From: Candidatus Krumholzibacteriia bacterium
GTDB taxonomy: Bacteria > Krumholzibacteriota > Krumholzibacteriia > JAJRXK01
Direction of reading: 5' to 3'
Assembly: GCA_041484665.1 (NCBI GenBank)
Contig: JBGPIA010000007.1
Location: 96,001-160,000 of the forward strand
DNA: 64,000 nt
The notes beneath the pieces were generated by a model. It had not been told where the DNA came from and did no database searches. It worked only from the letters and a program-made list of their open reading frames with translations. This document shows positions 38,415 through 61,013 of the stretch, piece after piece. Made by a program: the position numbers and the translations under genes. The stretch's first letter is position 1, and every line of letters starts with the position of its first letter.

Positions 38415-39119
38415 TCAGCGGGAGGTCGCAGCGGCACCCTGCTCGGATCCTCCTGCGGGGCTCGACTTCGCGGAAACGGCCACCGACGGGCCAGCGGGAT
38501 CGCCGACGGAGGCGCTCCCCGCGGCCATCTGCGCCATCGCCAGCGCGAGCCGGACCGTCTGCCCGATCCAGCGGGCCGGGGCTTCGCTGGCACGATCGGC
38601 AGCCTGCGGCAGCCAGCTCAGCAGATGGCGCTGCAGGTACTCCGCCCGCGCGCGGCCGATCTGCGCCAACGCCTCCCCCTGGCAGCCGCGGCGCAGCGTC
38701 TCGTCCTCCAGATGGAAGAGATGCGCCACAAACTCCAGCTGGTGTCGCAGGTGGTCTGCGGTCTCGTTGGCGCTGGAGCGCAGGCGCAGCCCAAACGCTT
38801 GGTAGAAGAGGATGTTCTCGTGCAGAACCTGCGGCACTGGACCGCGCCGGTTGTAATGCGACTCCAGCAGCGGCACCGGTGGGTGCGGCGCCCCCGCGTC
38901 GAAGGCCTCGATGTACTGGGCTTCGTACGCCTTGGCGCGCGTGGGGAGCCGCAGGGCTCCCTCGCGCTGCGGCCAGTCCGCCAGCTGCGCCAGACGCGCG
39001 AACATGCTGCGCGTGGAGCGAGCGCTCAGCCATTCCCACTGCTGCGCGCTCGGGGCGCGGAAGAGATCGTGCATGAAGAGGAAGGCGGCCTTCAGATCGG
39101 ACGGTGCGACCGTGGTCAT
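38415..39119 (-). CDS. TorD/DmsD/NarJ-family molybdoenzyme maturation chaperone
   Basis: YIEAFD...PLLESHY, FYQAFGL, ETADHLRHQLEF. Last gene of the molybdoenzyme operon. Confidence 0.85.
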   Translation of the reverse strand: MTTVAPSDLKAAFLFMHDLFRAPSAQQWEWLSARSTRSMFARLAQLADWPQREGALRLPTRAKAYEAQYIEAFDAGAPHPPVPLLESHYNRRGPVPQVLHENILFYQAFGLRLRSSANETADHLRHQLEFVAHLFHLEDETLRRGCQGEALAQIGRARAEYLQRHLLSWLPQAADRASEAPARWIGQTVRLALAMAQMAAGSASVGDPAGPSVAVSAKSSPAGGSEQGAAATSR

Positions 39120-39880
39120 TATGGCCCCACCTCGTACCAAGTGCTGAAGTACTTCAGCCCAGCGCGCTGCTGGCGTTCGCCGTCCCAGAAGGCGAAGGCC
39201 AGCGGCGTGCGCGGCGCCGGCGCAGGCAGCTCGAGCACGACCTCCCAGCCGCCCGCCGTGCGCCGCGCCGCGCCCGGAAACGACTCGCCGGTCGGCTCCG
39301 TCGATCCGCGCCCCGCGGCGCGCAGTCGCTCGAAGCCCCGCGCGGCGTCCCAGTAGTAGAGGCTCACCGGAGCGTCCTTGTCACCCATCATGAGCGCCGG
39401 GTACGTGGCACGCTCGCCGTCGGTCGCGGGCACCATCACGCACGCGGCGTCTGCGAAGCGCTCGATATCCATGGAGTGCTCCTTGTAGATGCGCTCGTCG
39501 CCGCCATCCGGGACGCGTTGTGGCGCGCGGGCGCGACTCTCGGTGGGATCCTGCCAGCGCAAGCGCACGAGCAGCTTGTCCTGCACCCTGGCCAGCGTCA
39601 CCCAGGCGACCGGCCGCGCGCCGTCGTCGACGGGATCGCCCTCGTAGATCGGCGGGGTGAGATTCAGATGGAGCGGCGCCTCCTCCAAGCCTGTCCAGCC
39701 ATCCGCGGCATTGCGCAGCTCGTCCGCGCTGCGACCGGACGACGTCACGGACAGCACGACCGCCCCATCCTCGACCGCGGGCGTCGCCTTGGCCGCGGCG
39801 ACCGCCGCCATGGGTACGACCGCGACCAGAAGCCCAGACAGCCGGAGGATCCAGGCTGCTCGCACCTCAATGACAGCCAT
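39119..39880 (-). CDS. Type II DMSO-reductase-family gamma subunit (EbdC-like periplasmic heme b protein)
   Basis: Signal peptide, RLRWQDPT, FADAACVM, LMMGD, AFAFWDGERQQRAGLK (Met/Lys heme b ligand pattern). Confidence 0.85.
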   Translation of the reverse strand: MAVIEVRAAWILRLSGLLVAVVPMAAVAAAKATPAVEDGAVVLSVTSSGRSADELRNAADGWTGLEEAPLHLNLTPPIYEGDPVDDGARPVAWVTLARVQDKLLVRLRWQDPTESRARAPQRVPDGGDERIYKEHSMDIERFADAACVMVPATDGERATYPALMMGDKDAPVSLYYWDAARGFERLRAAGRGSTEPTGESFPGAARRTAGGWEVVLELPAPAPRTPLAFAFWDGERQQRAGLKYFSTWYEVGP

Positions 39881-41084
39881 CGATGGCCTCCTTCGCTGGC
39901 GCGGGCGCGCAGCCACTCGCGCCCAGACCGCACGACGCGCATGCTCCCAGGGACGCTCTGCCGCCGCCTGCGCCCCCGCCACCTTGGCCGCTCCCGCCGC
40001 CTGCAGGAACGGGCAGCGTCCAAGGCGTCAGCGCATCGGGACCCGGCACATGGCGCCGCACCGCTCCCTGCACCTCGGCCGGCGCTGCGGTGAGCACGTC
40101 GTGGGGCACGATCCGGTAGCGCACCTGGTCGTCGCGGCCGATCAACAGTTGCAGCGCCTCGCTGCGCTCGCCGCGCTGCGCGCGCGCCAGCTCGGCCTCC
40201 AGCCGCAGGATCACGTCTGTGACCTGCGGTCCGAACAGGTATTGCAGGTATTCGAGCGGCAGACGCGGGTCGTCCAGAATGCTCTTGCCGGCGTTTCCGG
40301 TCTTGGGCGGGCTGAACGGCGGAACGTAGTAGACGTTGGGCACGGTTCCCTTCCCGGGAAACAGGCCCAAGGCCACCTTGTGCTCCAGCACCAGCTTGTG
40401 CACCGGCGACTGCGGGTCGTCGAGCAGCCCCACGAAGCGGATGCGCCCGGGGCACTGCGCCGCGCAAGCGTTGACCTTGCCCTTCTCCAGGCGCGGGTAG
40501 CAGAAGATGCACTTCTCGCTGCGCTGCGTGACTTCGTTGTAATAGATCTTCTTGTAGGGGCACGCCTTGATGCAGTACCGATAGCCGCGGCAGCGCTCCT
40601 GGTCGATCAGGACGATCCCATCCTCCTGCCGCTTGTAGATGGCCTTGCGCGGGCACGCCTCCAGGCAGGCCGGGTGCGTGCAGTGGTTGCAGATGCGCGG
40701 CAGGTAGAAGAAGTACGGGTTGCTCGGGTCCCAGCCGCCGACATCCTCGTCCCAGTTGGGGCCCCACTGCGGGTCGACGTGGGGCATGACCGGCTTGTTC
40801 TTCCCGTCGAACAGGCGCTGGGCGTAGTCGTACTCGAACGCCTCGCCGTAGTCGGCCTTGGCCGGCAGGGGCGACGGCCGCAGGTGGCGCTGCGCGTCGA
40901 AGCCGCCGCCCAGCGTGTGCCAGCCCCGCGGGTAGCCGGCGCCCGGGTGGGTCTCGACGTTGTTCCAGTACATGTAGTCCATGCCGTCGCCGTCGGTCCA
41001 TTGCTTCTTGCACGCGAGCGTGCAGGTCTGGCACCCGATGCACTTGTTCAGGTCCATGACCATCGCGTACTGGTGCGCGGACAT
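39867..41084 (-). CDS. narH: Type II DMSO-reductase-family beta (Fe-S) subunit, NarH-like
   Basis: MVMDLNKCIGCQTCTLACK, LPRICNHCTHPACLEACP, CRGYRYCIKACPYKK, EKCIFCYPR, CAAQCPGRIR. Confidence 0.9.
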   Translation of the reverse strand: MSAHQYAMVMDLNKCIGCQTCTLACKKQWTDGDGMDYMYWNNVETHPGAGYPRGWHTLGGGFDAQRHLRPSPLPAKADYGEAFEYDYAQRLFDGKNKPVMPHVDPQWGPNWDEDVGGWDPSNPYFFYLPRICNHCTHPACLEACPRKAIYKRQEDGIVLIDQERCRGYRYCIKACPYKKIYYNEVTQRSEKCIFCYPRLEKGKVNACAAQCPGRIRFVGLLDDPQSPVHKLVLEHKVALGLFPGKGTVPNVYYVPPFSPPKTGNAGKSILDDPRLPLEYLQYLFGPQVTDVILRLEAELARAQRGERSEALQLLIGRDDQVRYRIVPHDVLTAAPAEVQGAVRRHVPGPDALTPWTLPVPAGGGSGQGGGGAGGGRASLGACASCGLGASGCAPAPAKEAIDGCH

Positions 41085-41086
41085 GC

Positions 41087-44000
41087 TCAGCTCCTCGCGG
41101 CGGGCCGCTCGTACGCGGCGACGGGTCCGGTGTAGCGCGCGACGTCGACCTTGATATCGCGGTTGTTCCCGGTGGGGCCCCAATAGTTGAGCTTGAAGTT
41201 CAGGTGCCCGTAGCCGCCCACCAGCTGGGTCGGCTTGATCTTGATATAGGTGAGCGACTGCCAGCCGCCCTGCTGGAAGCCCAGGTACTTCTCCCAGCCG
41301 TGGTACATGGTCAGGCGCCCCTTCTTCTCGCCGGGGAGCAGTTTTGCCCGGACGATGGCGTCGCCCTGGTCGTTGTGCACGCGCACCCAGTCGTTGTCGC
41401 CGATCCCGCGCGAGCGGGCGTCGTCGGGATGGATGTAGACGATGGGCAGCCCGCGCTGCAGGCGAAGCATGTAGCGGTTGTCGCGCCAGGTGCTGTGGAT
41501 CGACCAGCGGCTATGGGGTGTGTTCCAGTAGAGCGGGTACTTGGGGTCGTCGACGGGGTCCTTGTGCACGGGGAGCTGCTCGCCGAGCTGCAGATACCAG
41601 TCATGATCTACGTAGAACTGCTGGCGGCCCGTGAGCGTGCGCCAGGGCCGCTTGTGCTCCGTCTGGTGCGTGAAAGGCGTGTAGGCACGTCCGGGCTCGA
41701 TTTCGCTGTTCCACGCCTCGGCGTCGATGGCACGGAAGCGCTGCGGGGCTTGCTGCAGCCCCTGGTAGCTCATTCCGCGCGTCTCGTCGGAGTTGGCCAG
41801 GATGAAATTGGCGAAGGCTTCATCGGAGTCCAGCGTGCCCTCCGCCGTCCACTCCGCCGTGAGCTTCGTGAAGTCGCGTGTCCAGCCCAGGTCGTTGTCC
41901 TGGAACGGTGTCAGGCCCCGCCGCTTCGCCAACTCCTCGATCTTCTGCGCCAGCCCGTGGAAAATCTCCCAGTCCGTCCTCGACTCGAAGAGCGGATCGA
42001 GCACCTTGCTGAACGGGTGCATGTATGAGTGGCAGTCGGTGCTGTTGAGGTCGGCCTTCTCGTAGTAGCTCGCAGCGGGCAGTACCACATCGCTGTAGAG
42101 CGCGGTCGTGTCCATGCGGAAGTTGACGTCGACGATCAGGTCGAGGTCGCGCCAAAGCGAACGCAGGATCGCCTCGTTGCCCTTCGCCTGGTTGAGGTAG
42201 TTGGCGCGCCACACGATCAGCGCACGTGGCTTGCGCGGCAGATCGTGCATCTGCGTGGGCTGGATCGCGGCCCAATCCTGCTTCGGCCACAGCGGCATCC
42301 ACTGATTGCGGACGGCCTCGAGGATCCAGTGCTCGATGGGCTTGCCGGCTACGGAGTGGGGATCCTGCATCTTGCTGTGGCAGTAGGTCCACAGCGTCGT
42401 GTTCTGGAACCGCTGCTTCTTGGGTCCCTGCGGGAAGGACAACCGCTTGAAACCGCGCTCGGGCCAGACGCGCTCCTGCCCCACGTAATGGTTGAAGCCG
42501 CCGCCGTTGCGCCCGACGTTTCCCGTGAGCGCTGCGATCAGGATCAGCGCGCGGTTGAGCAGATCGTTGTGGTACCAATGGTTGACACCGGCGCCGTGGA
42601 TGATCATGGCCGGCGCCCGCGTGAAGCCCTCGGCGAAGCTCAGCAGATCCTGCTCCGACAGCCCGCACGCCTGCGCCGCCCGCGCCGGCTCGTACAGCGG
42701 ATTGGCGAGCGTCTGCTTCAGCAGGCTGAACACGGTGGTGACCTCGACCTGGCGCTCGCCGTCCAGCGTGACGGACCAGCTGCCCGACAGCGCGGGGTCG
42801 ATCCCAGACAAGCGCAGCGACTTGCGCGCGGAGCCCATGCTGCCGGGCACAGGGGCCGGGGCCCCCTTGGCTGCGTCCCAGACGTAGAAGACGGCCTGCG
42901 GATCTCCGGGTGGCGGTCCTTTTTCCCCCTCTGGCTTGCTGGTGCCCTCGCGCGCGCCCGCCGTCTCGCCTTTGCGCTGGGCGGCGCTTGCGCCCTTGGC
43001 ACCGCTGTTCGTCGCGCCGCCGGTCGTGGCGGCCTTTGTCACGCCCAAGCCAGCCGGCGGCTGGACGCGGCCGGCGTCCCAGTCGGCCACCGCGGGCTCC
43101 ACACCGCGCCGGTCCGCAGGCAGATCGGCAGCGCGCAGGTACTTGCCCGTGTCCTTTCGCACCAGGAGCGGCAGATCCGTCTGCTCTTTGATGTAGGGGA
43201 CATCGATTTTGTCCTGCTCGATCAGCCAGCGCGAGACTGCGTTCGCCAGGATGGTGTCCATGCCCGGCGTGATGTGCAGGTACTGGTCGCAGTGGATGGC
43301 GCTGGCGTTGTAGTCGGGCGACACGCAGGCGACCTTTGCGCCGTTGTAGCGAGCCTCCCAGGCGAAGTGCGCGTCGGGAATGCGCGTCGCGTTGATATTG
43401 CTGCCCCACAGTACGATGTACTTGGCGTTGAACCAATCGGCGCACTCGCAGGCCTCGGTCTGTACGCCCCACGTGATGGGCTCGCCTGGGGGAAGATCGC
43501 AATACCAGTCGTAGAAAGAGCAGACCACCCCGCCGAGGTAGTGCGCCAGCCGCACACCCGCGGAGAACGACACGGGCGACATGGCCGGAATCACCGAGAA
43601 GAACGTATTCGTGTCCGGACCATGGCTGTAGATGTTGTCCAGGAGCTTGCCCGCGATGTGCTCCAGCGCCTCGTCCCAGCTCGCCCGCCGCCACTTGCCC
43701 TCTCCGCGTTTGCCGGCGCGGATCAGCGGATACTTCACCCGTTGCGCGCCGTAGACGTATTCGACGAAGCAGGCGCCCTTCTGGCAGCCGCGTGGGTTGT
43801 AGTCGGGCAGGTCCGCGTTGATGCGCGGGTAGTCGGCGGCCTGCTCCTCGCGCAGCATGATCCCGTCCTTGACGTAGACCTTCCAGGAGCAGGAGCCGGT
43901 ACAGTTGGCCGAGTGCGTCGAGCGGACGACTTTGTCCCAGCTGAAGTGCCGCCGGTAGAGCTCCTCCCAGCCGCGATACGGGTACGTGCGCAACGGATCG

Positions 44001-44293
44001 ACGTCGAGGATCTCGAACTCCTCCAGCGCCGCGTTCGTGGGCCGCGCCAGCAGGGCGGCGAGACCCAACCCCGCGCCCGCGCCGACCTTCAGGAAGCGGC
44101 GGCGACTCACCCCGGTGGCGGCGGTCGGCGGCCGCTCGCCCCCGCCTGCTTGCATCGTGGGATGCCCGGTCAAAGTGGGAGCGTCCGGCAGCCTGAAATG
44201 CCCTGACAGCCCGGGATCATCCGGCAGTGCAGCATCCACCGGCCTCGGGCTCGCGGCAGCGTGGGATGGGTCATGGTCGTCCATGGCGGTCAC
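41087..44293 (-). CDS. narG: Tat-exported type II DMSO-reductase-family catalytic subunit, periplasmic nitrate reductase (pNar)-like
   Basis: Tat motif SRRRFLK, FS0 motif HSANCTGSC...PRGCQKG, Mo-ligand motif SFYDWYCDLPPG, HYVGQE, TPHSRWSIHS. About 1000 aa mature. Start could be 44293 or 44284. Confidence 0.85.
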   Translation of the reverse strand: MTAMDDHDPSHAAASPRPVDAALPDDPGLSGHFRLPDAPTLTGHPTMQAGGGERPPTAATGVSRRRFLKVGAGAGLGLAALLARPTNAALEEFEILDVDPLRTYPYRGWEELYRRHFSWDKVVRSTHSANCTGSCSWKVYVKDGIMLREEQAADYPRINADLPDYNPRGCQKGACFVEYVYGAQRVKYPLIRAGKRGEGKWRRASWDEALEHIAGKLLDNIYSHGPDTNTFFSVIPAMSPVSFSAGVRLAHYLGGVVCSFYDWYCDLPPGEPITWGVQTEACECADWFNAKYIVLWGSNINATRIPDAHFAWEARYNGAKVACVSPDYNASAIHCDQYLHITPGMDTILANAVSRWLIEQDKIDVPYIKEQTDLPLLVRKDTGKYLRAADLPADRRGVEPAVADWDAGRVQPPAGLGVTKAATTGGATNSGAKGASAAQRKGETAGAREGTSKPEGEKGPPPGDPQAVFYVWDAAKGAPAPVPGSMGSARKSLRLSGIDPALSGSWSVTLDGERQVEVTTVFSLLKQTLANPLYEPARAAQACGLSEQDLLSFAEGFTRAPAMIIHGAGVNHWYHNDLLNRALILIAALTGNVGRNGGGFNHYVGQERVWPERGFKRLSFPQGPKKQRFQNTTLWTYCHSKMQDPHSVAGKPIEHWILEAVRNQWMPLWPKQDWAAIQPTQMHDLPRKPRALIVWRANYLNQAKGNEAILRSLWRDLDLIVDVNFRMDTTALYSDVVLPAASYYEKADLNSTDCHSYMHPFSKVLDPLFESRTDWEIFHGLAQKIEELAKRRGLTPFQDNDLGWTRDFTKLTAEWTAEGTLDSDEAFANFILANSDETRGMSYQGLQQAPQRFRAIDAEAWNSEIEPGRAYTPFTHQTEHKRPWRTLTGRQQFYVDHDWYLQLGEQLPVHKDPVDDPKYPLYWNTPHSRWSIHSTWRDNRYMLRLQRGLPIVYIHPDDARSRGIGDNDWVRVHNDQGDAIVRAKLLPGEKKGRLTMYHGWEKYLGFQQGGWQSLTYIKIKPTQLVGGYGHLNFKLNYWGPTGNNRDIKVDVARYTGPVAAYERPAARS

Positions 44294-44296
44294 TTT

Positions 44297-45922
44297 CTAT
44301 CGGGTCTGCGCGCCGGCCGGCGCTGCCGCCGTGATGTCGGGTGCACTGGGCGCCGCGGCGGGCGCCCTGGGAGCGACCGAGGGCGTGGTCGAGAGCGCCG
44401 TCATGTCCTGACCGGCGGGCGCTCCGATCCGGCGCAGGAAGGCGATCAGGTCGTCGAGTTGCGGTTCCTGGAAGCCGCCCTCCGCAGGCGCCACAGCGAG
44501 GAATGCGGGCATGGCCGTGTTCCGCCGGCCGAAGGCGATGGTGGCGTACAGGAAGTCGTCGCTGGCGTAACGCTGGAGCGCAGGCGCGACCAGCGACGGG
44601 CCCAGCCTCCCCTCGGCCGACAGTCCGTGGCAGCCCGAGCACTGCTTGGCGAACAGGGATGTGCCCCGCCGCGCGTCGCCACGCGCCGCGCGCGGATGGC
44701 TGCGGATGGGCGCCGTGGCCGCGGTCTGCGTCGCGTCCAGCTCGCGCCCCAGCAGGGTGCTGGCCAGGCGCAGGATCTCCTCCTCGCTCAACCCTCCGGC
44801 GGCCGCTCCCCACGCCGGCATGATCGTCCCGGCGCGCCCCTCGCGGATGTTGGCGGCCACGTACGCGGGCTCGGCGATCCGTTGGTAGGTCTCGCCGCGG
44901 ATCGCGGGGATGAACCGCGCGAAGAACTTGTCGTAGCGTCCGTAGATCCCCGTGTCGTGGCAGCTCTGGCACAGATCGGCGTAGAGCTGGTCGCCGCTGC
45001 GCGGCTCCGGGTGTTGGACGCGATAGAGGGCCAGGTGCTTGAGCGGGCTCAGGTACGATTTCGGGAGGTCACGCTGCTGCAGCGACAGCAGGAACGCGGT
45101 CAGCGCCGTTCGCTCGTCGCGGCTCAGGCCCGGGGTGGGCATCTGGCTGCCGGCGACGACCTGACGCGGATCGTCGAAGTGCTCGATCAGCCATTGGGCC
45201 AGGGTGTGCGGGCCCTGCACGTGGCCAAAGGGGAGCTGCCCGCGGACCTTGAGCCCCTCGTTGTCGAGAGCGGGCCCCAGACTCCCGCCCAGGCCGTCGA
45301 GCTTGTGGCAGCTGCGGCACCCCTTGGACACGAACAGCGCCGCGCCACGGGCGTATACCTCGCCTCCGCGTTGGGCCACCTCGGCGGGCGTGTGGCAGAT
45401 GCCGCAGGAGGACTGCGTCAAGTCCAGCGGAAGCAGCGGGTAGTCCCAGTGCCGGTCCTCGGCCTTGGCATCGGCGAAGTTGGTGGCCGCTCCCTGCCCG
45501 CGGTGGCAGATCGTGCAGCCGAACCGCGCGTCTTCGTGCCACTGCAGATAGGCGCCGGGGTGCGTGCGGTATGGATTGGGGACGTCGGTCATGCGCGGAT
45601 CGTCGTAGCCGGTGTGGCAGCTGACGCAGCGGTCCATCACACCCAGGTCCGCAACGACGATCTGGCGCAGCTCGACGACGTACTGGTCGGCGAGCTTGCG
45701 CCCCCAGTCGTCGCCGGCCTTCTGTCGCAGGATCTGCCCGTACTCGAGCTGGTGCCGCCGCCAGGTCGGCCGCAGGTTTTCCTCGACTGCGGCGTAGATC
45801 AGCACGCCCACCGTGGCCAGGCTCACGGCCAAGAGCCAGAGCTTCACCGCGCGGTCCCGCCGCAGCGCCTCCGCACGTACCGCCTCGGCGATCCCCAGGA
45901 TGTCCTTGCCGTTTGCGCTCAT
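44297..45922 (-). CDS. Membrane-anchored hexaheme cytochrome c
   Basis: N-terminal TM and six CxxCH motifs (CVSCH, CTICH, CGICH, CRSCH, CQSCH, CSGCH). Confidence 0.92.
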   Translation of the reverse strand: MSANGKDILGIAEAVRAEALRRDRAVKLWLLAVSLATVGVLIYAAVEENLRPTWRRHQLEYGQILRQKAGDDWGRKLADQYVVELRQIVVADLGVMDRCVSCHTGYDDPRMTDVPNPYRTHPGAYLQWHEDARFGCTICHRGQGAATNFADAKAEDRHWDYPLLPLDLTQSSCGICHTPAEVAQRGGEVYARGAALFVSKGCRSCHKLDGLGGSLGPALDNEGLKVRGQLPFGHVQGPHTLAQWLIEHFDDPRQVVAGSQMPTPGLSRDERTALTAFLLSLQQRDLPKSYLSPLKHLALYRVQHPEPRSGDQLYADLCQSCHDTGIYGRYDKFFARFIPAIRGETYQRIAEPAYVAANIREGRAGTIMPAWGAAAGGLSEEEILRLASTLLGRELDATQTAATAPIRSHPRAARGDARRGTSLFAKQCSGCHGLSAEGRLGPSLVAPALQRYASDDFLYATIAFGRRNTAMPAFLAVAPAEGGFQEPQLDDLIAFLRRIGAPAGQDMTALSTTPSVAPRAPAAAPSAPDITAAAPAGAQTR

Positions 45923-45931
45923 GGCGACACC

Positions 45932-47488
45932 TCAGTGGACGGGCCAGCGCGAGCTGCTCCAGTAGAAATCCCAATTGGGGCCGCGCAGCTGCGAGCCCAC
46001 GTACGTCAGCACGACGAATCCGGCCAAGAAACACGAGAACAGCGCGATCGCGGACATACGTGTCGAGCCGGTGCGCCGCAGCGCGCCCAGCGACCACAGC
46101 GCGTACGCCAGCGTGAGCAGCGTGCCGGGATTGACGAAGATGATCAGGAGCTGCGGCGCGTGGGGGAACCAGCTGCGAATCCAGCCGAACTCCACCGGGA
46201 CGGCCACCGCGAGCGCGGCCGCAGCCAGGCCGAAGATCAAGCTCTGCACCGCCATGCGCCGGCCGCGCGGGCCGCTGAACCAGATTCCCGGCTCCTCCCG
46301 CTCACGGTCGAGATACGGGATCAGCGCCAGCCCGAGCACCACGATGGCGGGGATGACCAGCCCGCCCATGAACGCCGAGTAGGAGACCATCTCCTGCAGG
46401 CCCAGGAAATACCACGGCGCCTTCGCCGGGTTTTCCGGGATGCTGGGGTTGGCCAGCTCCTTGAGCGGCGCGTCGAACCGGATGCCAAGCACCGTGACCA
46501 GCAGCATGGTGCCCATGAAGACCAGCAACTCGGCGCGCAGCAGGAACGGCCAGCTGGGCAATGTGTCGGCGGGATCGAGGTTGGTGGCGGGCGTGCGGTC
46601 GCGCACGATGCACATGAGACCGTAGGTCTTGCGCGGCGATTGCTCCGGGGCGGCCGGGGGCGTCCCCGCCACGGCGGCGCCCTTGCCCGCCGTGGTGACC
46701 GCCACGCCTGGGCGCGCCAGGCCTCCATCCTTGCGCAGGCGCCAGAAGTGCACGCCCAGAAGCGCCACGACCGAGAGCGGCAGGATCATCACGTGGAGCA
46801 GGTAGAAACGGATCAAGGCCTCCTGTCCGATCTCGCTCGCGCCCAACAGCAGCTGTTTGATGAAACCGCCCGGATCGAGCACGGACGTGATCCCCACGGC
46901 GTCGGTCAGCTCGCGCGGTGAGGCGGCGATGTTGCTGCCGATGGTGATGGCCCAGTAGGCAAGCTGGTCCCAGGGCAGCAGGTAGCCAGTGAACGACAGC
47001 CCCAGCGTGAGCACGAACAGCCCCATCCCCACCAGCCAGTTGAACTCGCGGGGGGCTTTGTAGGCGGCCGTGTAGAACACACGCACCATGTGCAGGATCA
47101 CCGCGATCACCATCAAGTGCGCCGCCCAGCGGTGAATGTTGCGGATGAAGCGTCCGGTGGGCACGACGTAGTGGATGTCCTTCATGCTCTGGTAGGCCGC
47201 GTCGGTCGCGGGTTTGTAATAGACCATGAGCAGGATCCCGGTCGCGACGAGGATGGCGAACAGCGAGGCGGTGGCCACCCCCAGCGCCATGGTCGTGGAG
47301 AAGCGCAGCGTGCGGATGTGCACGCGAGTGGCGTGCAGGTGCAGGAATACGTTTCCGAACACCGCCTGGCTGCGGCTGCGATCGCTCACGGGCGGTCCCT
47401 GCCGCACCAGCGACTCCTTGAACGTGCGCGGCAGCGCCCGCAGGTTCGCGCGGAAGAGGGCCAGCCCGGCCGGGCCGATGGCGGTCAT
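45932..47488 (-). CDS. petB: Cytochrome b of a Rieske/cytb complex (b6-like plus subunit-IV-like in one chain)
   Basis: IHRWAAH, ILHMVRVF, GYLLPWDQ, YLLH...GVHFW. The PEWY position reads KAPWYF. Confidence 0.92.
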   Translation of the reverse strand: MTAIGPAGLALFRANLRALPRTFKESLVRQGPPVSDRSRSQAVFGNVFLHLHATRVHIRTLRFSTTMALGVATASLFAILVATGILLMVYYKPATDAAYQSMKDIHYVVPTGRFIRNIHRWAAHLMVIAVILHMVRVFYTAAYKAPREFNWLVGMGLFVLTLGLSFTGYLLPWDQLAYWAITIGSNIAASPRELTDAVGITSVLDPGGFIKQLLLGASEIGQEALIRFYLLHVMILPLSVVALLGVHFWRLRKDGGLARPGVAVTTAGKGAAVAGTPPAAPEQSPRKTYGLMCIVRDRTPATNLDPADTLPSWPFLLRAELLVFMGTMLLVTVLGIRFDAPLKELANPSIPENPAKAPWYFLGLQEMVSYSAFMGGLVIPAIVVLGLALIPYLDREREEPGIWFSGPRGRRMAVQSLIFGLAAAALAVAVPVEFGWIRSWFPHAPQLLIIFVNPGTLLTLAYALWSLGALRRTGSTRMSAIALFSCFLAGFVVLTYVGSQLRGPNWDFYWSSSRWPVH

Positions 47489-47506
47489 GATCGCGTCCTC
47501 ATCTCG

Positions 47507-47974
47507 CTAGCCCGCAAAGAAGGTTTCGGGGGCGACCTCGCGCTTCGCGTCCACCAGCAGGCTCCCATCGGCCGCGCGCGATACCTCCAGCCAGCGCAGC
47601 CCGCGCGGCGCCGGGCCGCCTACCACCGCGCCCTGCGCGTCGAAGCGCGAGCCGTGGCACGGGCAGCGGAAGCCGTCGGGGGTCTCGCCCACGATGCATC
47701 CCAGGTGGGTGCAGACCAGCGACATGGCCGCGACACCTTTGGCCGTCGAGACGATCCGCACGTTGCGCTCGGGCAGGACGCGCACCGTGCCGGCCGCGTA
47801 CTGCTCCAGGCGGCCGATGCGGAAGCGTGAGCCGGCCTCGGGCAACAGCCGCGGCCTTGGCAGTCGCGCCATGCCGTGCAGCGATCCCAGGACCGCCGCG
47901 GCGGCGCTCAGCAGACCCGCCAGGCTCAGGAAATCACGGCGCGGAATCGGCGCGGGCTCTAGGCGACCTGACAT
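47507..47974 (-). CDS. petC: Rieske [2Fe-2S] protein
   Basis: Tat motif RRDFL, CTHLGC, CPCHGSRF, GPAPRGL. Confidence 0.93.
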   Translation of the reverse strand: MSGRLEPAPIPRRDFLSLAGLLSAAAAVLGSLHGMARLPRPRLLPEAGSRFRIGRLEQYAAGTVRVLPERNVRIVSTAKGVAAMSLVCTHLGCIVGETPDGFRCPCHGSRFDAQGAVVGGPAPRGLRWLEVSRAADGSLLVDAKREVAPETFFAG

Positions 47975-50223
47975 ACGAGCCTCTCCTGGAAGAGGAAGCG
48001 TTCCATGGTGATGGCCCCCGTGGGGCAGCGTTGCGCGCACAACGCGCAGCGGATGCAAATGGTCTCGTCCTTCACGATGGCCGAGGCCTGCCCGGGGGGG
48101 ACGCCGGCCAGCTGTGTGGCGAGCACGTCGGACAGGCGGTCTCGGCCGTGGCTCGCGCTGCCGGCAGCGCTGTCCTTTGCAGTGCCGGCCGCGCTGGCAG
48201 CCGCGATGCTGGCTGCGCTGGCAGCCGGGGTCGGGACTGCACTGGCAGCTGGGCCGCCCACTGCGGCACCGTCCGCGGCACCGTTCGCGGCGGGGACCAG
48301 CCGGTCGACCGACACGATGCGTAAGCACAGCTGCGGGCAGACGTCCACGCAGCCGCCGCAAAGGATGCACTTGTCGCCGTCGAAAATGGTGTTGACGCCG
48401 CAGTCCAGGCAGCGTGACGCCTCGCGGTGCGCCTGCGCGTGCGTGTAGACCATCTCCACGGGAGAGCTTTGGGAGGCCAGCCGCGCCTTCGGAGTTGCGG
48501 TCGGCACCGCGACGCGTCGCGTCGTCTCGTAGCTGGCCTCCCGCAGGTAACCGGGAAGCGCCAGGTGCAGCTCCACATCGCGCGGGGCGAGTGTCCGGCC
48601 GGTGACGGCCCGGTAGATCTCCCGGGCCACCTGCTTGCCCGAGGCCACGGCGTGGATTAGGAGCTTGGGCCCATAGGCGAGGTCGCCAGCGACGTAGAGC
48701 CCCGGTGTGCGCGTGGCGCCGGTGACCGGGTCGCACGCGATTGTCCCGCGCGGCGTCAGCTCGACGGCGTCGCGCTGCGCGTCGACGAAGCGCAGGTCGA
48801 CCTCCTGGCCGATCGCCAGCAGTACCGTGTCGCAGGGGATCGTCTCGCGCACGCTGTCGTCGAAGAGGGGCGCGAAGCGGTGGCGCTCGTCGTACACCCG
48901 CGTGCACGGCCGGAACACGACCCCGGTCACGCGTCCTTGCGCATCCTGCTCGAGCTCGACGGGGCCGAGGCCGTTGCGCCGGACGATCCCCTCCTCGTCA
49001 CCCTCGAGGATCTCCACGTCGTCGGCGGGCATCTCGGCAAGCGACTCCAGCGAGCAGAGCGTCACGGTGCTGACCCCGGCCTCGCGCAGGGCCGTGCGTG
49101 CCGCGTCGAGGGAGATCTGACGCAGCACCGTGCGGCCGACGTCGTAGGCCACGTTGCCGCCGCCGATCACCACGACGCGCCGGCCGAGGGGTACTTGGCG
49201 GCCCAGGGCAATGTCGCGCAGGAACTCCACGCCACCCAGCACTTCCGCGGCACCGGCGCCAGGGATGGGCACGCGGCGGGAGCGTTTGGCGCCCACCGCG
49301 ACGATCACCGCATCGTGGCGCTGGCGCAGCTGCGCCAGCGAGATGTCCTTACCTACCTCGCAGCTGGTGACCGCCCTCACGCCCAGCGCCTCGATCACGG
49401 CCACCTCGGCCCGGATCAGGTCGCGCGGCAGGCGGTACTCCGGCACTCCGATCGAGAGCATGCCGGCCAGCACCGGCTCCATCTCGTAGATCGTGACGTC
49501 GATGCCCAGCAGCGTCAGGTCGTGCGCCGCGGCGAGCCCGGCGGGCCCGCTGCCGATGATCCCCACCGACTTGCCCGTGGCGAGCGGGACGTCGCCCGCC
49601 AGCAGCGACTGCAGGAGCGGCAGCAGCTCCTCGGCACCCGTGCACGGCTGCGCGTCGGGTCGCCGCTGCGCGGCGCGGCGCGCGGAATCCTTGAGGAAGT
49701 CGATCAGGCCGCGGCTGACGTCGGGATGCGCCTCGGGACCATACCGCTCGCAGACGAAGCGCTTCAGCGCTCGGATGGCGATTGGTCGGTCGAGCTCGCC
49801 GCGCCGGCACGCGAGCTCGCACGGCGCGCCGCAGATGCGGCCGCAGATGGACGCCAGCGGGTTCGGACCGCGGGCGATCAGATATGCCAGCTCGAGGTCG
49901 CCCTCGGCGATGGCGCGCACGTAGCCGCGCGCATCGGTGTGCACGGGGCAGGCCGCCTGGCATTTGATCTGGCTCTTCCAGTAATCGAGGTCGGGGATGC
50001 GTACCGGCACCGTCATCGCCGCGGCGGCGTGGGACGGCGGAGCGGAGCCTGGTGGCAGTCCGCCGGCGTGGGGCGGCAGAGCGCACTCTGGTGGCAGTCC
50101 GCCAGCGTGTGGCGGCGTCCCCCGCGCCGCTCCCGAATCGCCGGACGCGCCCGCACGATCTGGCCGGCCGGCCGGCCGGGGCGCGCCTCCCCCTGCAGAT
50201 GGAGCTGGCTCTCGAAGGGCCAA
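47959..50223 (-). CDS. GltD/NfnB/DsrL-like NAD(P)/FAD oxidoreductase with N-terminal Fe-S and C-terminal 2x[4Fe-4S] domains
   Basis: CQAACPVH, ICGRICGAPCELACRR, GSGPAGL, GGGNVAYD, RCLDC, CILCGGCVDVCP, CIRCALCAQRCP. Start is TTG 50223 (AGGAGG RBS) or ATG 50016. No signal peptide. Confidence 0.9.
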   Translation of the reverse strand: MALREPAPSAGGGAPRPAGRPDRAGASGDSGAARGTPPHAGGLPPECALPPHAGGLPPGSAPPSHAAAAMTVPVRIPDLDYWKSQIKCQAACPVHTDARGYVRAIAEGDLELAYLIARGPNPLASICGRICGAPCELACRRGELDRPIAIRALKRFVCERYGPEAHPDVSRGLIDFLKDSARRAAQRRPDAQPCTGAEELLPLLQSLLAGDVPLATGKSVGIIGSGPAGLAAAHDLTLLGIDVTIYEMEPVLAGMLSIGVPEYRLPRDLIRAEVAVIEALGVRAVTSCEVGKDISLAQLRQRHDAVIVAVGAKRSRRVPIPGAGAAEVLGGVEFLRDIALGRQVPLGRRVVVIGGGNVAYDVGRTVLRQISLDAARTALREAGVSTVTLCSLESLAEMPADDVEILEGDEEGIVRRNGLGPVELEQDAQGRVTGVVFRPCTRVYDERHRFAPLFDDSVRETIPCDTVLLAIGQEVDLRFVDAQRDAVELTPRGTIACDPVTGATRTPGLYVAGDLAYGPKLLIHAVASGKQVAREIYRAVTGRTLAPRDVELHLALPGYLREASYETTRRVAVPTATPKARLASQSSPVEMVYTHAQAHREASRCLDCGVNTIFDGDKCILCGGCVDVCPQLCLRIVSVDRLVPAANGAADGAAVGGPAASAVPTPAASAASIAAASAAGTAKDSAAGSASHGRDRLSDVLATQLAGVPPGQASAIVKDETICIRCALCAQRCPTGAITMERFLFQERLVCQVA

Positions 50224-50274: not shown

Positions 50275-51465
50275 CTACCGGGTTACCGCGGGCGGCGCTT
50301 GCGTGCGCGGCCCAACGGCGCCGCCCGCGCTCTGCGCCCCGCCGCCGGGCGACTCGCCGCGCCCGCTGTGGTCGTTGCCACCCCGGCCATTCACGGCGGG
50401 GTGGCCGTACTGCGCGCCGTGGATGTCCTGGATGCGCTCCACGTACTCGCGGTCGCCGATCCCGTTGCGCCACAGCCCTGCGGCGCGCGCGCCCGCGTAG
50501 CCGGCCACGAACAACAACACCACGGCCGTGGCGTAGGTCAGCACACCGATGCGCCGCCCGCCCGCGTGGATCGTGAGCGTGTCGCTCACCGGGCAGACCG
50601 CGACGCAGTCGAGGCACCCGGTGCACTCGGCACTCAGCAAGGCGCCCGCGGTGGAGACCGGCAGACGCGCCATACAGACCTTGTCACACAGCTTGCAGTC
50701 GATGCAGCTGGCCGGCGCGCGGCGCACGCGCACGGGCGAAAGCCGCGAGAGCAGACCCAAGAGCGCGCCGTAGGGGCACAGATACCGGCACCACAATCCC
50801 TGCACGAAGACCGACGCGACGACCAGCACCAGAAGTGTGATGCCCGCCGTCCTGCCCAGTTGGGCGAAGAACAGCGCCATCTTCACGTCGGCGACCCGGT
50901 TGTAGGGTGACTCGAGGAAGAAGCGCAACTCGACTTGGTGCATGGCCGCGATCGAGTAGGCGAAGAAGGCGAGCAACAGGTACTTCAGCCCGCGCAGCGG
51001 CACGTCCAGAGAGCGCCAGATGCGGAAGTTGCGCCCGAACAGCCTGCGGCCCACCCGCGCCAACGCCTCGGACAGGAAGCCCACCGGGCAGATCCACGCG
51101 CAGAACGACTTGCGCAGCAGGAGCGCCAGCGCAGCGGCGATCAGCAGCAGGATCGTGGCCGCCGGGTGGATGCGGTTGAGCGTCCCCTGGTGGACCCAGT
51201 CGACCAGCCCCATGAGGCCACTGATGGGCAGGAAGCCCTCGACGCCGGGAGGCCGCACGGGCAGCGGCAGGGCTCCCTGCTGGGCGGCGCGGTAGAACTG
51301 GGCGAACTGGACTCCCAGCAGCACGCACGTCGCGGCGAACGCCGACTGCACGAGCAGGCGCGCGCGCCACGAGCGGTCGGCTTTGCGGCCCGTGCGGCCG
51401 CCGAGCCACGCGCGCAGGGGGAGGTGGGGGATCGAGGCGGGCAACGTCTGGAGCAGGTGTCTCAT
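50275..51465 (-). CDS. YccM/NapH-like membrane polyferredoxin
   Basis: GVEGFLPISG, FCAWICPVG, WCRYLCPYG, CIDCKLCDKVC, CTGCLDCVAVCP, several TM helices. Confidence 0.88.
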   Translation of the reverse strand: MRHLLQTLPASIPHLPLRAWLGGRTGRKADRSWRARLLVQSAFAATCVLLGVQFAQFYRAAQQGALPLPVRPPGVEGFLPISGLMGLVDWVHQGTLNRIHPAATILLLIAAALALLLRKSFCAWICPVGFLSEALARVGRRLFGRNFRIWRSLDVPLRGLKYLLLAFFAYSIAAMHQVELRFFLESPYNRVADVKMALFFAQLGRTAGITLLVLVVASVFVQGLWCRYLCPYGALLGLLSRLSPVRVRRAPASCIDCKLCDKVCMARLPVSTAGALLSAECTGCLDCVAVCPVSDTLTIHAGGRRIGVLTYATAVVLLFVAGYAGARAAGLWRNGIGDREYVERIQDIHGAQYGHPAVNGRGGNDHSGRGESPGGGAQSAGGAVGPRTQAPPAVTR

Positions 51466-51758: not shown

Positions 51759-52313
51759 CTAGCTCCCCGAGCCGTGCGGCTTCCGGCGCGGCGACCGCGA
51801 GCCGCCCCGGGAGCGATCCAGCGCGCGGGACCTAGGCGGCGGCGCGGGGGCATGGCGTGCCGCTTTGGGTGGCGCGTCTGGAGTCCCGCTCTCGCACAAC
51901 GGAGAGCTGGCACCGGGGCCTCGATCGCGCAGGACGTCGGCGACGGTCGAGGTGGCGAAGACGCGCTCGACCTCGGCAATCGCGCGGTCGAGGCGCTGAT
52001 GCAGCAGGCACAGGTTCGCTCCGTGCATCTCGATCCCCAGGGGGCACTCGCGGATCCGCTGCAAGGGATCGACCACATTGATGACGTCCAGGATCGACAG
52101 TTCGCGCGGCTCGACCGCCAGCACGAAACCCCCGTGCAGTCCACGCTGGGAGCTGACGTAACCGGCTCGGCCGAGGGACTGGAGGACTTTCGAGAGATAG
52201 TCCGCCGGGACCTTCGTGCCGCGGGCGATCTGCCGCGTGGTGTGCGCCGCTTCGCGATGGGCGGCAAGCCATACGATCGCGCGCAGCGCGTACTCGGCGG
52301 TCTGGGAGAACAC
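51759..52313 (-). CDS. Rrf2-family transcriptional regulator (probably Fe-S binding)
   Basis: FSQTAEYALRA, YLSKVLQSL, SQRGLHGGF, CPLG...HGANLCLLH. GTG start inferred. Confidence 0.9.
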   Translation of the reverse strand: MFSQTAEYALRAIVWLAAHREAAHTTRQIARGTKVPADYLSKVLQSLGRAGYVSSQRGLHGGFVLAVEPRELSILDVINVVDPLQRIRECPLGIEMHGANLCLLHQRLDRAIAEVERVFATSTVADVLRDRGPGASSPLCESGTPDAPPKAARHAPAPPPRSRALDRSRGGSRSPRRKPHGSGS

Positions 52314-52451
52314 CAAGGCTGGATCGGCCTCCGGGCCCGACGTTGTGGGACGACCTTGGGGGAGGGCGTTGCGCGGGCCGCGTTTCTGGGGCGGCGTTGG
52401 AGTTGCTCGACGGCGCTCCAGCGGGGCCAGGGGGATCCGGGCCCGCGCTGC

Positions 52452-56206: not shown

Positions 56207-57190
56207 CTATCCGTTCCATCCGCCCCGCAGCAGCTTGGCCGCGTCGACGGCGCTATACGTGAGGATCATGTCGGCCCCCGCGCGCCGGAATGCCGTGAGG
56301 GTCTCCATGAGGATCCGGTCGTAGTCGATCCAGCCGTTGGCAGCAGCGGCCTTGAGCATCGCGTACTCGCCGCTGACGTGGTAGACGGCAGTCGGCATCC
56401 CGAAACGGTCCTTCACCCGGCGCAGCACGTCGAGGTACGGCAGGCCTGGCTTCACCATGACGATGTCGGCGCCCTCTTCGATGTCGAGCGCCACTTCGCG
56501 CAGCGCCTCGTCTCCATTGGCCGGATCCATCTGGTAGCTCTTGCGATCGCCGAACTGCGGGGGCGACTGGGCCGCGTCGCGGAACGGCCCGTAGAAGGCG
56601 CTGGCGTACTTGGCGGCGTAGCTCATGATCGGCAGATGGGTGAAGCCGTCGTCATCCAGGCGCTCGCGGATGGCCGCCACGCGGCCGTCCATCATGTCGC
56701 TGGGGGCCACGATGTCCGCTCCCGCCCGCGCGTGGGCGAGCGACTCGCGCGCCAGCAGGTCCAGGGTCCGGTCGTTGTCGACGTCGCCGCCCTCGATCAC
56801 GCCGCAGTGCCCGTGGTCGGTGTACTCGCACAGGCACACGTCGGTGATCACCAGCATGTCCGGCACGTGCTCCTTCAGCGCGCGCACCGCGTTGGGGATG
56901 ATCCCCTCGTCGTCGTAGGCCTCGCTGCCCTGGGGATCCTTGCGTGTGGGGATCCCGAACAGGATCGTGGCGGTGACCCCGACCTCCACGGCCTCGCTCA
57001 GCATGTCGATCAGGCGGTCGATCGACAGCTGGTGCTGGCCCGGCATGCTGGGGATCTCGCTCCTGATGCCCTTTCCGGGAACGACGAACGTCGGATAGAT
57101 GAGCTGCTCCGCAGCCAGGCGCGTCTCGCGCACCAGCGCCCGCAGCCGCGGAGTGCGGCGCAGGCGACGCATGCGGTGATCGGGGAACAT
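56207..57190 (-). CDS. hemB: Porphobilinogen synthase (Zn type)
   Basis: [49 protein letters not shown]. Confidence 0.97.
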
Positions 57191-58360: not shown

Positions 58361-59356
58361 TCAAACCTGGCCGCCGGCGCCGCCATTGCGGGCCCTCTCC
58401 GCCGCCCGCGCGCCGGCCGCCTCGGCGGCCGCTGCCTTCGTCTCCGCCACAATCTCAGCACCGCCCTGCCCCAGGATCTGCTCGGCAACGCGCCTGCCCA
58501 ATCCCTCAAGATCTGCCGGCGCGCCGCGCGCCTCGGCGCGAAGCAGGACCGTGCCGTCGGGGCGCCCCAGGCGTGCCCGCAACCACAACTCGCTGCCGTC
58601 GATCAGGCAATAGCCGGCGAGCGGCACGACGCAGCCGCCGGCGACCGCCGCAAGCAGCGCGCGCTCGGCGCGCGCGCAAATTGAAGCGTCGTGGTCGTCA
58701 ATCGACGCGACGAGCGCCGCGGCCGGATCGTCCGCGCGGGTCTCCAGGCCGATGATCCCCTGCCCCACTGCCGGCAGCAGTGTCTCCGGCTCCAGGAAGG
58801 CGGTGATCCGGTCGCGCCAACCCAGACGCAGCACACCGGCCGCCGCCAGGATCATCGCATCGAACTGCCCCTCCTCGAACTTGCGCCAGCGCGTGTTCAC
58901 GTTGCCGCGCAGGCCCACCAGATTCAGGTCGCGGCGCATGGCCAGGAGCTGGCAGCGCCGTCGCAGGCTGCCGGTGGCGACCTTCGCCGCCTTGCGCAGT
59001 TGCGCGAGCGGCACACCGTCGCGGTGGAACCACACGTCCCGCACGTCCTCACGCGGGGAGTGCGCGGCGATCGTCATGCCGCCCGCGAGCTTCGCCGGCA
59101 CGTCCTTGAGGCTGTGCACGGCGACGTCGATGCGGCCGGCGGCGAGCTCGCGCTCCAGCGCCTGGGTGAAGACGCCGACCTCGCCCAGGGCGAAGAGCGG
59201 CGTGACCAGGTCGACGTCCCCAGCGCTGTGCACTTCGATGATCTCGACCGCAAGGCCCGGGTACGCCGCGGCCAGGCGGTCGCGTGCCCAGCGCGCCTGC
59301 CACAGGGCGAGCTCGCTGCCGCGCGTGCCCAGTCGCAGCGTGCGCAGGGCGCTCAT
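58361..59356 (-). CDS. hemC: Hydroxymethylbilane synthase
   Basis: GTRGSELALWQ, AVHSLKDVP, TGSLRR, LRGNVNTR, PAVGQG, GGCVVP. Confidence 0.96.
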   Translation of the reverse strand: MSALRTLRLGTRGSELALWQARWARDRLAAAYPGLAVEIIEVHSAGDVDLVTPLFALGEVGVFTQALERELAAGRIDVAVHSLKDVPAKLAGGMTIAAHSPREDVRDVWFHRDGVPLAQLRKAAKVATGSLRRRCQLLAMRRDLNLVGLRGNVNTRWRKFEEGQFDAMILAAAGVLRLGWRDRITAFLEPETLLPAVGQGIIGLETRADDPAAALVASIDDHDASICARAERALLAAVAGGCVVPLAGYCLIDGSELWLRARLGRPDGTVLLRAEARGAPADLEGLGRRVAEQILGQGGAEIVAETKAAAAEAAGARAAERARNGGAGGQV

Positions 59357-61011: not shown

Positions 61012-61013
61012 GG

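Follow-up and report, generated by a model that had tools for sequence, protein, structure and literature searches.

A flavoprotein gene without an export signal that runs into the gene for a Rieske protein raises the question of whether NAD(P)(H) exchanges electrons with a Rieske/cytochrome b complex and, if so, in which direction. The locus lies in a window of 64,000 nt (the whole stretch of DNA analyzed, whose positions are used here) of contig JBGPIA010000007.1 (GCA_041484665.1) from a Candidatus Krumholzibacteriia bacterium. It is an operon headed by the flavoprotein gene, with all genes on the minus strand, and it gathers in one cluster a conserved set of FAD/Fe-S oxidoreductase, Rieske, b6-type cytochrome b and multihaem cytochrome c genes; four Rieske/cytochrome b loci were found in the host genome. 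The flavoprotein gene (47959..50016) encodes a cytoplasmic FAD/4x Fe-S oxidoreductase of 685 aa (Pfam Pyr_redox_2, Fer4_20 and Fer4). It is followed by genes for a Rieske [2Fe-2S] protein (47507..47974), with a twin-arginine RRDFL motif and invariant CTHLGC/CPCHGSRF motifs (Ser109, Phe111), for a cytochrome b6 fused to subunit IV in a single 518-aa chain (45932..47488), and for a membrane-anchored hexahaem cytochrome c (44297..45922; six CxxCH; Pfam). The first-pass annotation had delimited the flavoprotein gene correctly except for its start, placed at 50223, which is the TTG of the longest ORF; homologues and the database copy use the ATG at 50016, and the 69 codons in between are of low complexity. 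Since GAGGAG, which resembles a ribosome-binding site, sits just ahead of this TTG, it stays a possible start. Upstream are genes for a NapH/MauN-like membrane polyferredoxin (50275..51465; Fer4_5, TIGR02163 below cut-off) and an Rrf2-family regulator (51759..52322, start approximate; Pfam Rrf2 E 1.5e-28). The former was rejected as a core subunit and appears to be a local addition, as it is not conserved upstream in relatives; matches to it in 80 related loci were weak only and all downstream. Of the 74 related loci whose upstream ORFs were examined, 32 have an Rrf2 gene there.

The 16-nt overlap first noted was borne out, with the flavoprotein stop at 47959 and the Rieske ATG at 47974. Among 75 relatives with a Rieske gene, the two genes overlap in 51, by exactly 16 nt in 27, and lie within 30 nt of each other in 67 (gene starts were picked by script); because near-contact recurs across these relatives, the overlap is not due to chance. 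The Rieske gene is directly downstream of the flavoprotein gene in 75, and a cytochrome b gene is found in 71, of the 80 best relatives, and all loci missing Rieske (5/80) or cytochrome b stop at contig ends. The same order was found in 11 of 13 more distant matches, the others being one truncated locus and one without this order. The first-pass annotation had also considered that close homologues might mostly occur beside glutamate synthase or Nfn partners; no such GltB or Nfn neighbours were found, there being no glutamate-synthase or NfnS domain (E<=1e-10) in any of the 122 ORFs lying upstream at 74 loci.

The proposed contact between flavoprotein and cytochrome b was examined by complex prediction, using a haem-free cytochrome b monomer (residues 22-330). 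An interaction was predicted, but with a weak score of 0.45 (best control, 0.00); at least 63% of contacts were common to the runs and partner pLDDT was at least 75. Of 157 solved complexes, 116 reach the mark taken as support, as do 2 of 215 mismatches; those that do so with scores no higher than 0.60 comprise only 18 of the 157 solved complexes and both mismatches. This weak score would suit a separate, soluble NADH:ferredoxin/flavodoxin-type oxidoreductase that is co-regulated without binding to cytochrome b, as would locus L111, where the flavoprotein gene lies some 6 kb away on the opposite strand, and the 55 of 157 scorable related cytochromes b that have no such gene nearby. Such an enzyme seems improbable given how often, as described above, the flavoprotein gene touches or nearly touches that of the Rieske protein, and given that it accompanies the complex even where relatives have a different terminal enzyme; in addition, all Kuste4569-4574 subunits of Kuenenia co-migrate, as PMC12954380 reports from cited work. 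Synteny and homology to anammox subunits give good support to the assignment of the flavoprotein to the Rieske/cytochrome b complex.

Both dinucleotide folds seen in the first reading are present, an FAD fold with GSGPAG (155-160) and a second fold with GGGNVA (285-290), and across 80 of 80 relatives these motifs and a GD motif (444-445) show little or no variation. Likewise, no export signal was apparent when the protein was inspected from either of its two candidate starts. The fold is of the GltD/NfnA/StnC type with a C-terminal 2x[4Fe-4S] ferredoxin domain. Seventeen cysteines are invariant, and 15 of these, together with Lys85 at the FAD-proximal cluster (80/80 relatives), fit exactly four clusters; because C58 and C564 are each absent from one Kuenenia homologue, the "at least four" clusters originally counted reduce to four, not clearly more. 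The YRR segment of StnC and NfnA aligns to S322-L323-E324, which confirms its replacement, and L323 and E324 are conserved in 80/80 relatives. As we take SLE in this place to mark NAD- rather than NADP-type enzymes, the window flavoprotein looks to be of the NAD type.

Foldseek matched the flavoprotein (E 1e-41 to 1e-27) to NfnA of NfnABC (9bov, 9n5u), StnC (8oh5), NfnI-L (5jca) and GltD (6s6s), with which it shares the FAD and nucleotide domain fold and the first two clusters. Unlike these proteins, it has lost YRR, ends in the ferredoxin domain, and has a membrane cytochrome as partner and no Bfu, Nfn or GltB partner genes. Identity with GltD was rejected (TIGR01316/01317/01318 far below cut-off, no GltB domain upstream, no YRR), as was identity with NfnL (NfnI, NfnSL), for which there is no NfnS partner gene, SLE replaces YRR, and the proximal cluster has Lys85, a Glu ligand there presumably belonging to NfnI-L. 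The structural homology to NfnI-L could suggest flavin-based bifurcation at the FAD, with NADH electrons passing to the haem chain and to a cytoplasmic low-potential carrier. This is very improbable, as the closer matches, NfnA and StnC, share the proximal-cluster Lys and are not themselves the subunits that bifurcate, and no NfnS-like partner or second exit was found.

Quinol bifurcation to NAD(P)+ was reportedly proposed for anammox Rieske/cytochrome b complexes by Kartal in 2013. The first-pass annotation cited this proposal, and its idea is thus not new; the Kuenenia complexes were modelled with AlphaFold3 in 2025 (PMC12954380), where the support for quinol-driven NAD(P)+ reduction, in the parts of that paper drawn on here, consists of Rieske potentials and models only. 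The window flavoprotein shows full-length homology to Kuste4570 and Kustd1483 (33% identity; E 1e-97 and 1e-83), and the closest solved relatives of the Rieske protein are Kuste4569 (9rk4) and Kustd1480 (9rk3). Kuste4569-4574 and Kustd1480-1485 similarly combine Rieske, b6-type cytochrome b, multihaem c and FAD/4-cluster NAD(P) oxidoreductase subunits with an APWY motif, and their electron-path residues map one to one: Kuste4571 His43/Kustd1481 His62 to His50, Arg247 and Arg266/Lys267 to cytochrome b Arg252/Lys253, Kustd1483 Arg550 to flavoprotein Arg663, and the buried Lys at the FAD-proximal cluster to Lys85; in the close relatives compared, these positions do not vary. By contrast, the Kuenenia complexes have split b6/subunit IV, WCMGG with haem cN (loci L115 and L116), YRR (NADP type), the Rieske gene first, and an octahaem HAO-like or unknown acceptor, whereas the window, whose host is not an anammox bacterium, has a fused cytochrome b with Ala68/Val71 and no Cys/Gly, SLE (NAD type), the flavoprotein gene first and a PcrA-related molybdoenzyme. 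The layout is already known from anammox, and what differs here is the fused cytochrome b without the haem-cN Cys, the apparently NAD-type flavoprotein and the PcrA-related molybdoenzyme. The APWY motif, the b6-like N-terminal domain and several paralogues per genome are shared with the APWY clade (PMC4122944) and groups A1-A2 (PMC3509893); in the sections of these papers on the two groupings, CxGG is given for split members only, no flavoprotein partner is mentioned, and a fused, Cys-less, flavoprotein-headed branch is absent. No description of the non-anammox, Cys-less form was found in the literature, where Kartal 2013, de Almeida 2016, ten Brink 2013 and Dibrova 2013 may cover it.

The low-potential branch had been suggested to exchange electrons with NAD(P)(H) instead of, or besides, a Qi quinone. 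The four haem-b His (H119/H133/H232/H247), the Rieske cluster ligands, the Tat motif and APWY in the Qo site are all present, and H50, H52, R252, K253 and E320 are retained, while Ala68 and Val71 replace the CxGG haem-cN motif. Of 70 ungapped close relatives, none has the haem-cN Cys, every one has another residue for the second Gly, and 7 have a Cys one residue earlier. The bc1-type Qi His is also missing, with Arg252 standing at what we take to be its position. Loss of the Cys fits "instead"; "besides" remains, since the window cytochrome b retains His52 and Glu320 and may thus still have a site for a quinone or a non-covalently bound haem on the n-side. Both residues are retained in 35 of 69 relatives, and both are lost in 28, which keep the flavoprotein nonetheless. 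All 12 YRR flavoproteins parsed are paired with Cys-bearing and none with Cys-less cytochrome b; the 87 flavoproteins beside Cys-less cytochrome b comprise 75 with xLE, 5 with ARQ and 7 not parsed. Repeated loss of the Cys upon flavoprotein gain is not supported by the cytochrome b tree (a quick tree with SH-aLRT as its sole support measure, rooted at the midpoint, from which 7 duplicate loci were removed and in which the Cys column was kept). Because Cys-bearing rows form one starred clade, including 15 flavoprotein-bearing anammox-type rows, and 15 of the 55 flavoprotein-less cytochromes b are also Cys-less, the loss appears to be about one event. His50 and Arg252 were rejected as a signature of the flavoprotein path, and are no proof of it, since all 55 flavoprotein-less cytochromes b have both.

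Membership of the flavoprotein in a bc-type complex, as first proposed, is thus well supported, while the choice between a bifurcating and an NAD(P)H-fed complex is not decidable from sequence. Our tentative reading, which we rate as quite possible though short of an even chance, is that the flavoprotein is the cytoplasmic subunit and low-potential exit of the complex and reduces NAD+. Menaquinol would be oxidized at the periplasm-side APWY site, as in the family, and its two electrons split. One would pass, by gene order, through Rieske, hexahaem cytochrome c and gamma/beta subunits to a molybdoenzyme that probably reduces nitrate; the other would pass through haems bL and bH, perhaps a fifth haem bound by the His50 residues of the two monomers, and then four Fe-S clusters and FAD to NAD+. 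This low-potential route is suggested by the Kuenenia model and the conserved residues; those proposed for the dimer-interface haem b (His50, Arg252, Lys253, Arg663) are present and not flavoprotein-specific. Because the anchoring cysteine for the extra haem is absent from the cytochrome b, NAD+ is a likely destination for one quinol electron; with no haem cN covalently attached, the site of quinone reduction on the n-side would be weakened or lost, with NAD+ in its place. With potentials taken as -74 (MK), +420 (nitrate) and -320 mV (NAD), a proton-motive force of 120-180 mV leaves each quinol a computed net drive of +128 to +68 mV. The Rieske protein is of the Ser/Phe type, for which the rule stated in the portion of PMC3509893 on Rieske potentials gives 200-230 mV; bH would then lie at about -233 mV, from where NAD+ reduction is uphill, although Kustd1480, also a Ser/Phe protein, was measured at +335 mV (PMC12954380).

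The host genome carries futalosine menaquinone and complex I genes, and complex I could send NADH electrons back to the quinone pool with proton pumping. Because of complex I and two haem-copper oxidase-family genes, the host looks like a respiring heterotroph without obvious need to make NADH. It is less likely, though plausible, that NADH feeds the complex, the clusters and n-side haems reducing menaquinone at a residual n-side site in an "original Mitchell" Q-cycle and a self-contained NADH-to-nitrate chain. This would be thermodynamically downhill, an NAD-type motif presumably suits catabolic NADH, and the retained His52/Glu320 would fit, as would the make-up of the operon, which is complete from donor to acceptor and often has an Rrf2 regulator, and its patchy spread (present in 3 of 40 relatives and in 0 of 9 from the same family), the pattern that a portable respiratory module should show. 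Donation from the n-side is discussed for b6f with Fd/FNR in part of PMC7908018, but that route is bound there to haem cn, whose anchor is missing here; moreover, 28 of 69 relatives are without all four n-side residues, and the route bypasses the host's proton-pumping complex I, an objection also raised in PMC12954380.

The hexahaem cytochrome c and the molybdoenzyme, both needed by the mechanism, had been left out of the first-pass annotation. The latter is a DMSO-reductase type II catalytic subunit with a twin-arginine signal (41087..44284; TIGR03479 passed, 1111 vs 985 bits), accompanied by an Fe-S beta subunit (39867..41084; TIGR03478 passed), a haem b gamma subunit (39119..39880; TIGR03477 E 2.7e-24, below cut-off) and a NarJ/TorD-type maturation chaperone (38415..39119; Pfam Nitrate_red_del, TIGR03482 below cut-off). 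Its closest solved match is PcrA (5e7o/4ydd), and with Asp263 at the Mo-ligand position and a NarG-type Glu604 where PcrA has Trp461, it is probably a periplasmic nitrate reductase. Canonical perchlorate respiration, which with PcrA needs chlorite dismutase, is unlikely given Glu604 and since PF06778 was not found in the host genome (93.65% complete). Similar outward-facing type II enzymes are PcrAB (4ydd) and the haloarchaeal periplasm-facing Nar, which the section of PMC3509893 on these archaea places in one cluster with a Rieske/cytochrome b complex; unlike here, that cytochrome b belongs to the actinobacterial/Thermus branch, with no NAD(P) subunit described there. Terminal partners in relatives are NapA-like, NXR-like or Aio/Idr-like enzymes or an oxidase. 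The NXR-type enzymes, at 5 of 80 loci, would fit reversed operation, in which the molybdoenzyme oxidizes a substrate (e.g., nitrite) and the complex reduces menaquinone backwards with a low-potential electron from NADH or the proton-motive force; a reversed Q-cycle is proposed for a Geobacter APWY complex in the section of PMC4122944 concerned. Such reversal has little likelihood here, as the window enzyme is closest to PcrA with a NarG-type Glu, and the partner at locus L045 is an oxidase, which accepts electrons only.

With quinol-driven NAD+ reduction, a broader suggestion, less likely than not, is that a widespread Rieske/cytochrome b branch lacks an n-side quinone site, so that the electron always exits as NADH, which complex I recycles, and that in ordinary respiring bacteria it can be coupled, like a plug-in module, to nitrate- or oxygen-reducing enzymes or to those of the iodate/arsenite type. 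Short-circuit to quinone at haem cN is the larger problem of the anammox model (PMC12954380), which natural haem-cN-less forms would then escape, and the dimer-interface haem may be a trait of the whole APWY clade. Since it lacks the haem-cN anchor, in some of its members also the other n-side residues, and needs no anammox culture, this branch could be a cleaner test system for a Q-cycle ending in NADH. If its Q-cycle does end in this way, many genes labelled "glutamate synthase beta" or "formate dehydrogenase beta" would be misnamed, and many uncultured bacteria could conserve more energy from respiring nitrate than metabolic models now assume.

Read along the minus strand, an Rrf2 gene and a NapH-like polyferredoxin gene precede those for the flavoprotein (50016-47959), the Rieske protein (47974-47507) and cytochrome b (47488-45932). 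A gene for a hexahaem cytochrome c (45922-44297) comes next, and then four genes for a type II DMSO-reductase-family enzyme (44284-38415). The flanking genes form a haem and quinone supply region, with hemL, hemB, hemC and protoporphyrinogen oxidase (34996-36300, 56207-57190, 58361-59548, 59353-61704) and futalosine-type menaquinone genes of the MqnP-like and MqnA/D families (28020-31219). Long, low-complexity Ala/Gly/Pro-rich inserts at 48150-48280 (flavoprotein) and 42870-43100 (Mo enzyme), and a possible long N-terminal extension of the flavoprotein with the same composition (50017-50223), are not found in relatives.

The first-pass annotation had reported that the flavoprotein gene overlaps the Rieske gene and encodes two dinucleotide folds and an altered YRR segment; all three features are real, the overlap being 16 nt and the segment reading SLE. 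In the AlphaFold2 model (pLDDT 86.8), this motif ends the strand following GGGNVA, and residues 580-622 form an Ala-rich disordered insert. The top Foldseek matches were NfnA of NfnABC (9bov), StnC (8oh5) and NfnI-L. An acidic residue at the YRR position usually indicates NAD(H) use and, with xLE in place of YRR, the flavoprotein looks to be an NAD-type rather than an NADP-type form. Alignment of relatives identified 17 invariant Cys, two of which are dispensable in a Kuenenia homologue; the remaining 15, with Lys85, account for four clusters. One related locus (L128:85-4534) carries tandem flavoprotein paralogues, one YRR-type and one CLE-type, ahead of the Rieske gene.

Of the 185 relatives confirmed, the best 80, picked by flavoprotein similarity alone, were analysed; 75 of them have a Rieske gene directly after the flavoprotein gene and 71 a cytochrome b gene, and all loci without one or the other end at a contig edge; the Rieske start is overlapped in 51 of the 75 loci, by exactly 16 nt in 27. 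More distant matches (36-46% range, n=13) had the same neighbours in 11 cases, one locus being truncated and one having none. Relatives occur in Ignavibacteria, Latescibacterota/Eisenbacteria, Binatia, Myxococcota, Planctomycetota, Hydrogenedentota, Wallbacteria, Poribacteria and other groups. Glutamate synthase or Nfn partners had been named initially as evidence against a cytochrome b complex; no glutamate-synthase or NfnS domain was found in 122 upstream ORFs of 74 related loci, 32 of these ORFs being Rrf2. Complex prediction with cytochrome b residues 22-330 as a monomer plus the flavoprotein weakly supported the pairing, with a score of 0.45 versus 0.00 for the best control (contact agreement between runs at least 63%, partner pLDDT at least 75); in calibration the mark was reached by 116/157 solved and 2/215 mismatched pairs, and at scores of 0.60 or below by only 18/157 solved pairs and both mismatched ones. 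Mostly on the basis of synteny, the flavoprotein very probably belongs physically to the Rieske/cytochrome b complex. At one locus (L111), the flavoprotein gene lies approximately 6 kb from its Rieske/cytochrome b genes, on the opposite strand.

The window cytochrome b belongs to the APWY clade (PMC4122944). Its Ala68 occupies the position of b6 Cys35, the anchor of haem cN. Among 70 ungapped close relatives, the residue there is Gly in 61, Ala in 8 and Asp in 1; all 70 lack the final Gly of CxGG, and 7/70 carry a Cys one residue before the haem-cN position. Since haem cN is absent from many working bc complexes, a missing Cys does not equate to a dead Qi site. His52 and Glu320, the latter matching the modelled cN ligand when aligned to KEFL of Kuenenia, are mostly kept or lost together: of 69 sequences, 35 have both, 28 have neither and 6 are mixed. 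The window has both. In a mostly Planctomycetota subclade (L010, L014, L043, L048, L050, L051, L055-L062, L064-L066, L068-L070, L072-L076, L078, L079), both are replaced by hydrophobic residues and the Cys and Gly are also missing; judged from these residues, its members are the best candidates for a complex without an n-side quinone site.

A wider table of 164 cytochromes b was put together by hand from searches of two phyla plus a handful of further genomes and is not a random sample; 8 sequences were left out, 7 as duplicates or near-duplicates and one because it is not of the APWY clade. A flavoprotein gene was found within 3 kb in 102 rows (87 without Cys, 15 with) and not in 55 (40 with Cys, 15 without), 7 rows having too little flank to score; all 12 parsed YRR flavoproteins lie beside a Cys-bearing cytochrome b. 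On the tree, the rows with the Cys group together in a single starred clade (60 rows, SH-aLRT 98) that takes in the anammox complexes. The Cys state changes on approximately one branch, plus two losses, and therefore neither co-evolution of Cys loss with the flavoprotein nor a direction of change is supported. A separate group from the host's phylum (L139-L153) has a fused cytochrome b without Cys, retains both Gly, lacks the flavoprotein, and shows the gene order cytochrome b then Rieske, with a seven-haem cytochrome present.

Quinol bifurcation reducing NAD(P)+ was proposed in 2013 for the Kuenenia complexes Kuste4569-4574 and Kustd1480-1485, as restated in PMC12954380. The route modelled in that paper passes from bN/cN to a new His-His haem located at the dimer interface, then along four clusters to FAD, and quinone reduction at haem cN is named there as the larger unsolved problem of the anammox model. 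Both Kuenenia-type loci (L115, L116) were retrieved, with Rieske ORFs matching stretches of 9rk3/9rk4. The window flavoprotein is 33% identical to each of Kuste4570 and Kustd1483. In cytochrome b, Kuenenia His43/His62 correspond to window His50, Arg247 to Arg252 and Arg266/Lys267 to Arg252/Lys253; in the flavoprotein, Kustd1483 Arg550 corresponds to Arg663. Kuste4570 Arg511 is part of the other ferredoxin motif, and its counterpart in the window is Gly555. Unlike in Kuenenia, cytochrome b and subunit IV form a single fused chain in the window, and the flavoprotein is xLE rather than YRR. His50 and Arg252 were ruled out as a marker of the flavoprotein path because they are present in 55/55 relatives without a flavoprotein gene, including the host's own C4 complex. 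The proposed fifth-haem His and Arg/Lys occur at these 55 loci (e.g., L082, L155-L174); the dimer-interface site may be a feature of the whole APWY clade, or the partner may be encoded elsewhere.

Downstream of the cytochrome c, the best 80 of 185 loci encode NapA/Fdh-like (39), PcrA-like (9), NXR-like (5), Aio/Idr-like (1), haem-copper oxidase (1) or other (1) enzymes, 24 loci being too short. The window Mo enzyme passed TIGR03479 and has PcrA as its closest match, with Glu604 at the position of PcrA Trp461. Glu at this position is the NarG-type state (PMC6650914), and archaeal periplasmic Nar are relatives of PcrA (PMC4623255); nitrate is the likely substrate, as judged from sequence. Among the side cases, an anammox-NXR-type enzyme lies directly downstream of the module in non-anammox bacteria (L032, L034-L036, L042, L104, L108, L109, L114; for L036, best match 7b04, E 1.9e-286). 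At L045:4082-10764, genes for a 1261-aa cytochrome c with 11 haems and for subunits I/III of cytochrome c oxidase close the module. At L028:16360-21869, the genes after the module encode two dihaem peroxidase-like proteins and AioB/AioA-like subunits, a layout which we take to be iodate-reductase-like.

The best reading, which we hold tentatively and at somewhat less than even chances, is a menaquinol-splitting complex that reduces NAD+. Menaquinol would be split at the APWY site, one electron passing to nitrate and the second across the membrane to NAD+, and the NADH could re-enter via complex I. With assumed potentials, the net drive would be +70 to +130 mV per quinol. As counter-evidence, the rule in PMC3509893 places a Ser/Phe Rieske protein at 200-230 mV, which by calculation would make the last step approximately 90 mV uphill; measured Kuenenia Rieske potentials are +303 and +335 mV, the latter for the Ser/Phe-type Kustd1480 (PMC12954380). 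The main rival, which we consider less likely, is that NADH feeds the n-side of the complex. Such n-side feeding has been discussed for Fd/FNR and b6f (PMC7908018). NAD(P)H input was weighed and then disfavoured in PMC12954380.

The host genome (5.45 Mb, 93.65% complete) contains complex I genes, two COX1-family genes and futalosine menaquinone genes; chlorite dismutase was not found in this assembly. It has four Rieske/cytochrome b loci, namely the one in the window and C12, C4 and C2. The C12 locus encodes a flavoprotein paralogue (43-45%) with a CLE motif and a cytochrome b without Cys, the C4 locus has WCAGG in cytochrome b and no flavoprotein nearby, and the C2 locus is of PEWY type. The C12 operon (L081:3576-16298) has the order flavoprotein-Rieske-cytochrome b-octahaem c, with a split cytochrome b, and is preceded by a 463-aa one-haem ORF and a 199-aa secreted ORF without an NCBIfam match. 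The host's class includes genome G031 (locus L006). The close orthologue was found in 3/40 sampled relatives of the host, 0/9 of its family and 12/301 Planctomycetota (E<1e-180); the module is patchily distributed and was probably transferred. No description of a fused, haem-cN-less, NAD-type form wired to oxyanion reductases was found in the part of the literature covered. The kind of complex is already known but uncharacterised, and the window encodes its fused, haem-cN-less, NAD-type form, wired to a probable oxyanion reductase.
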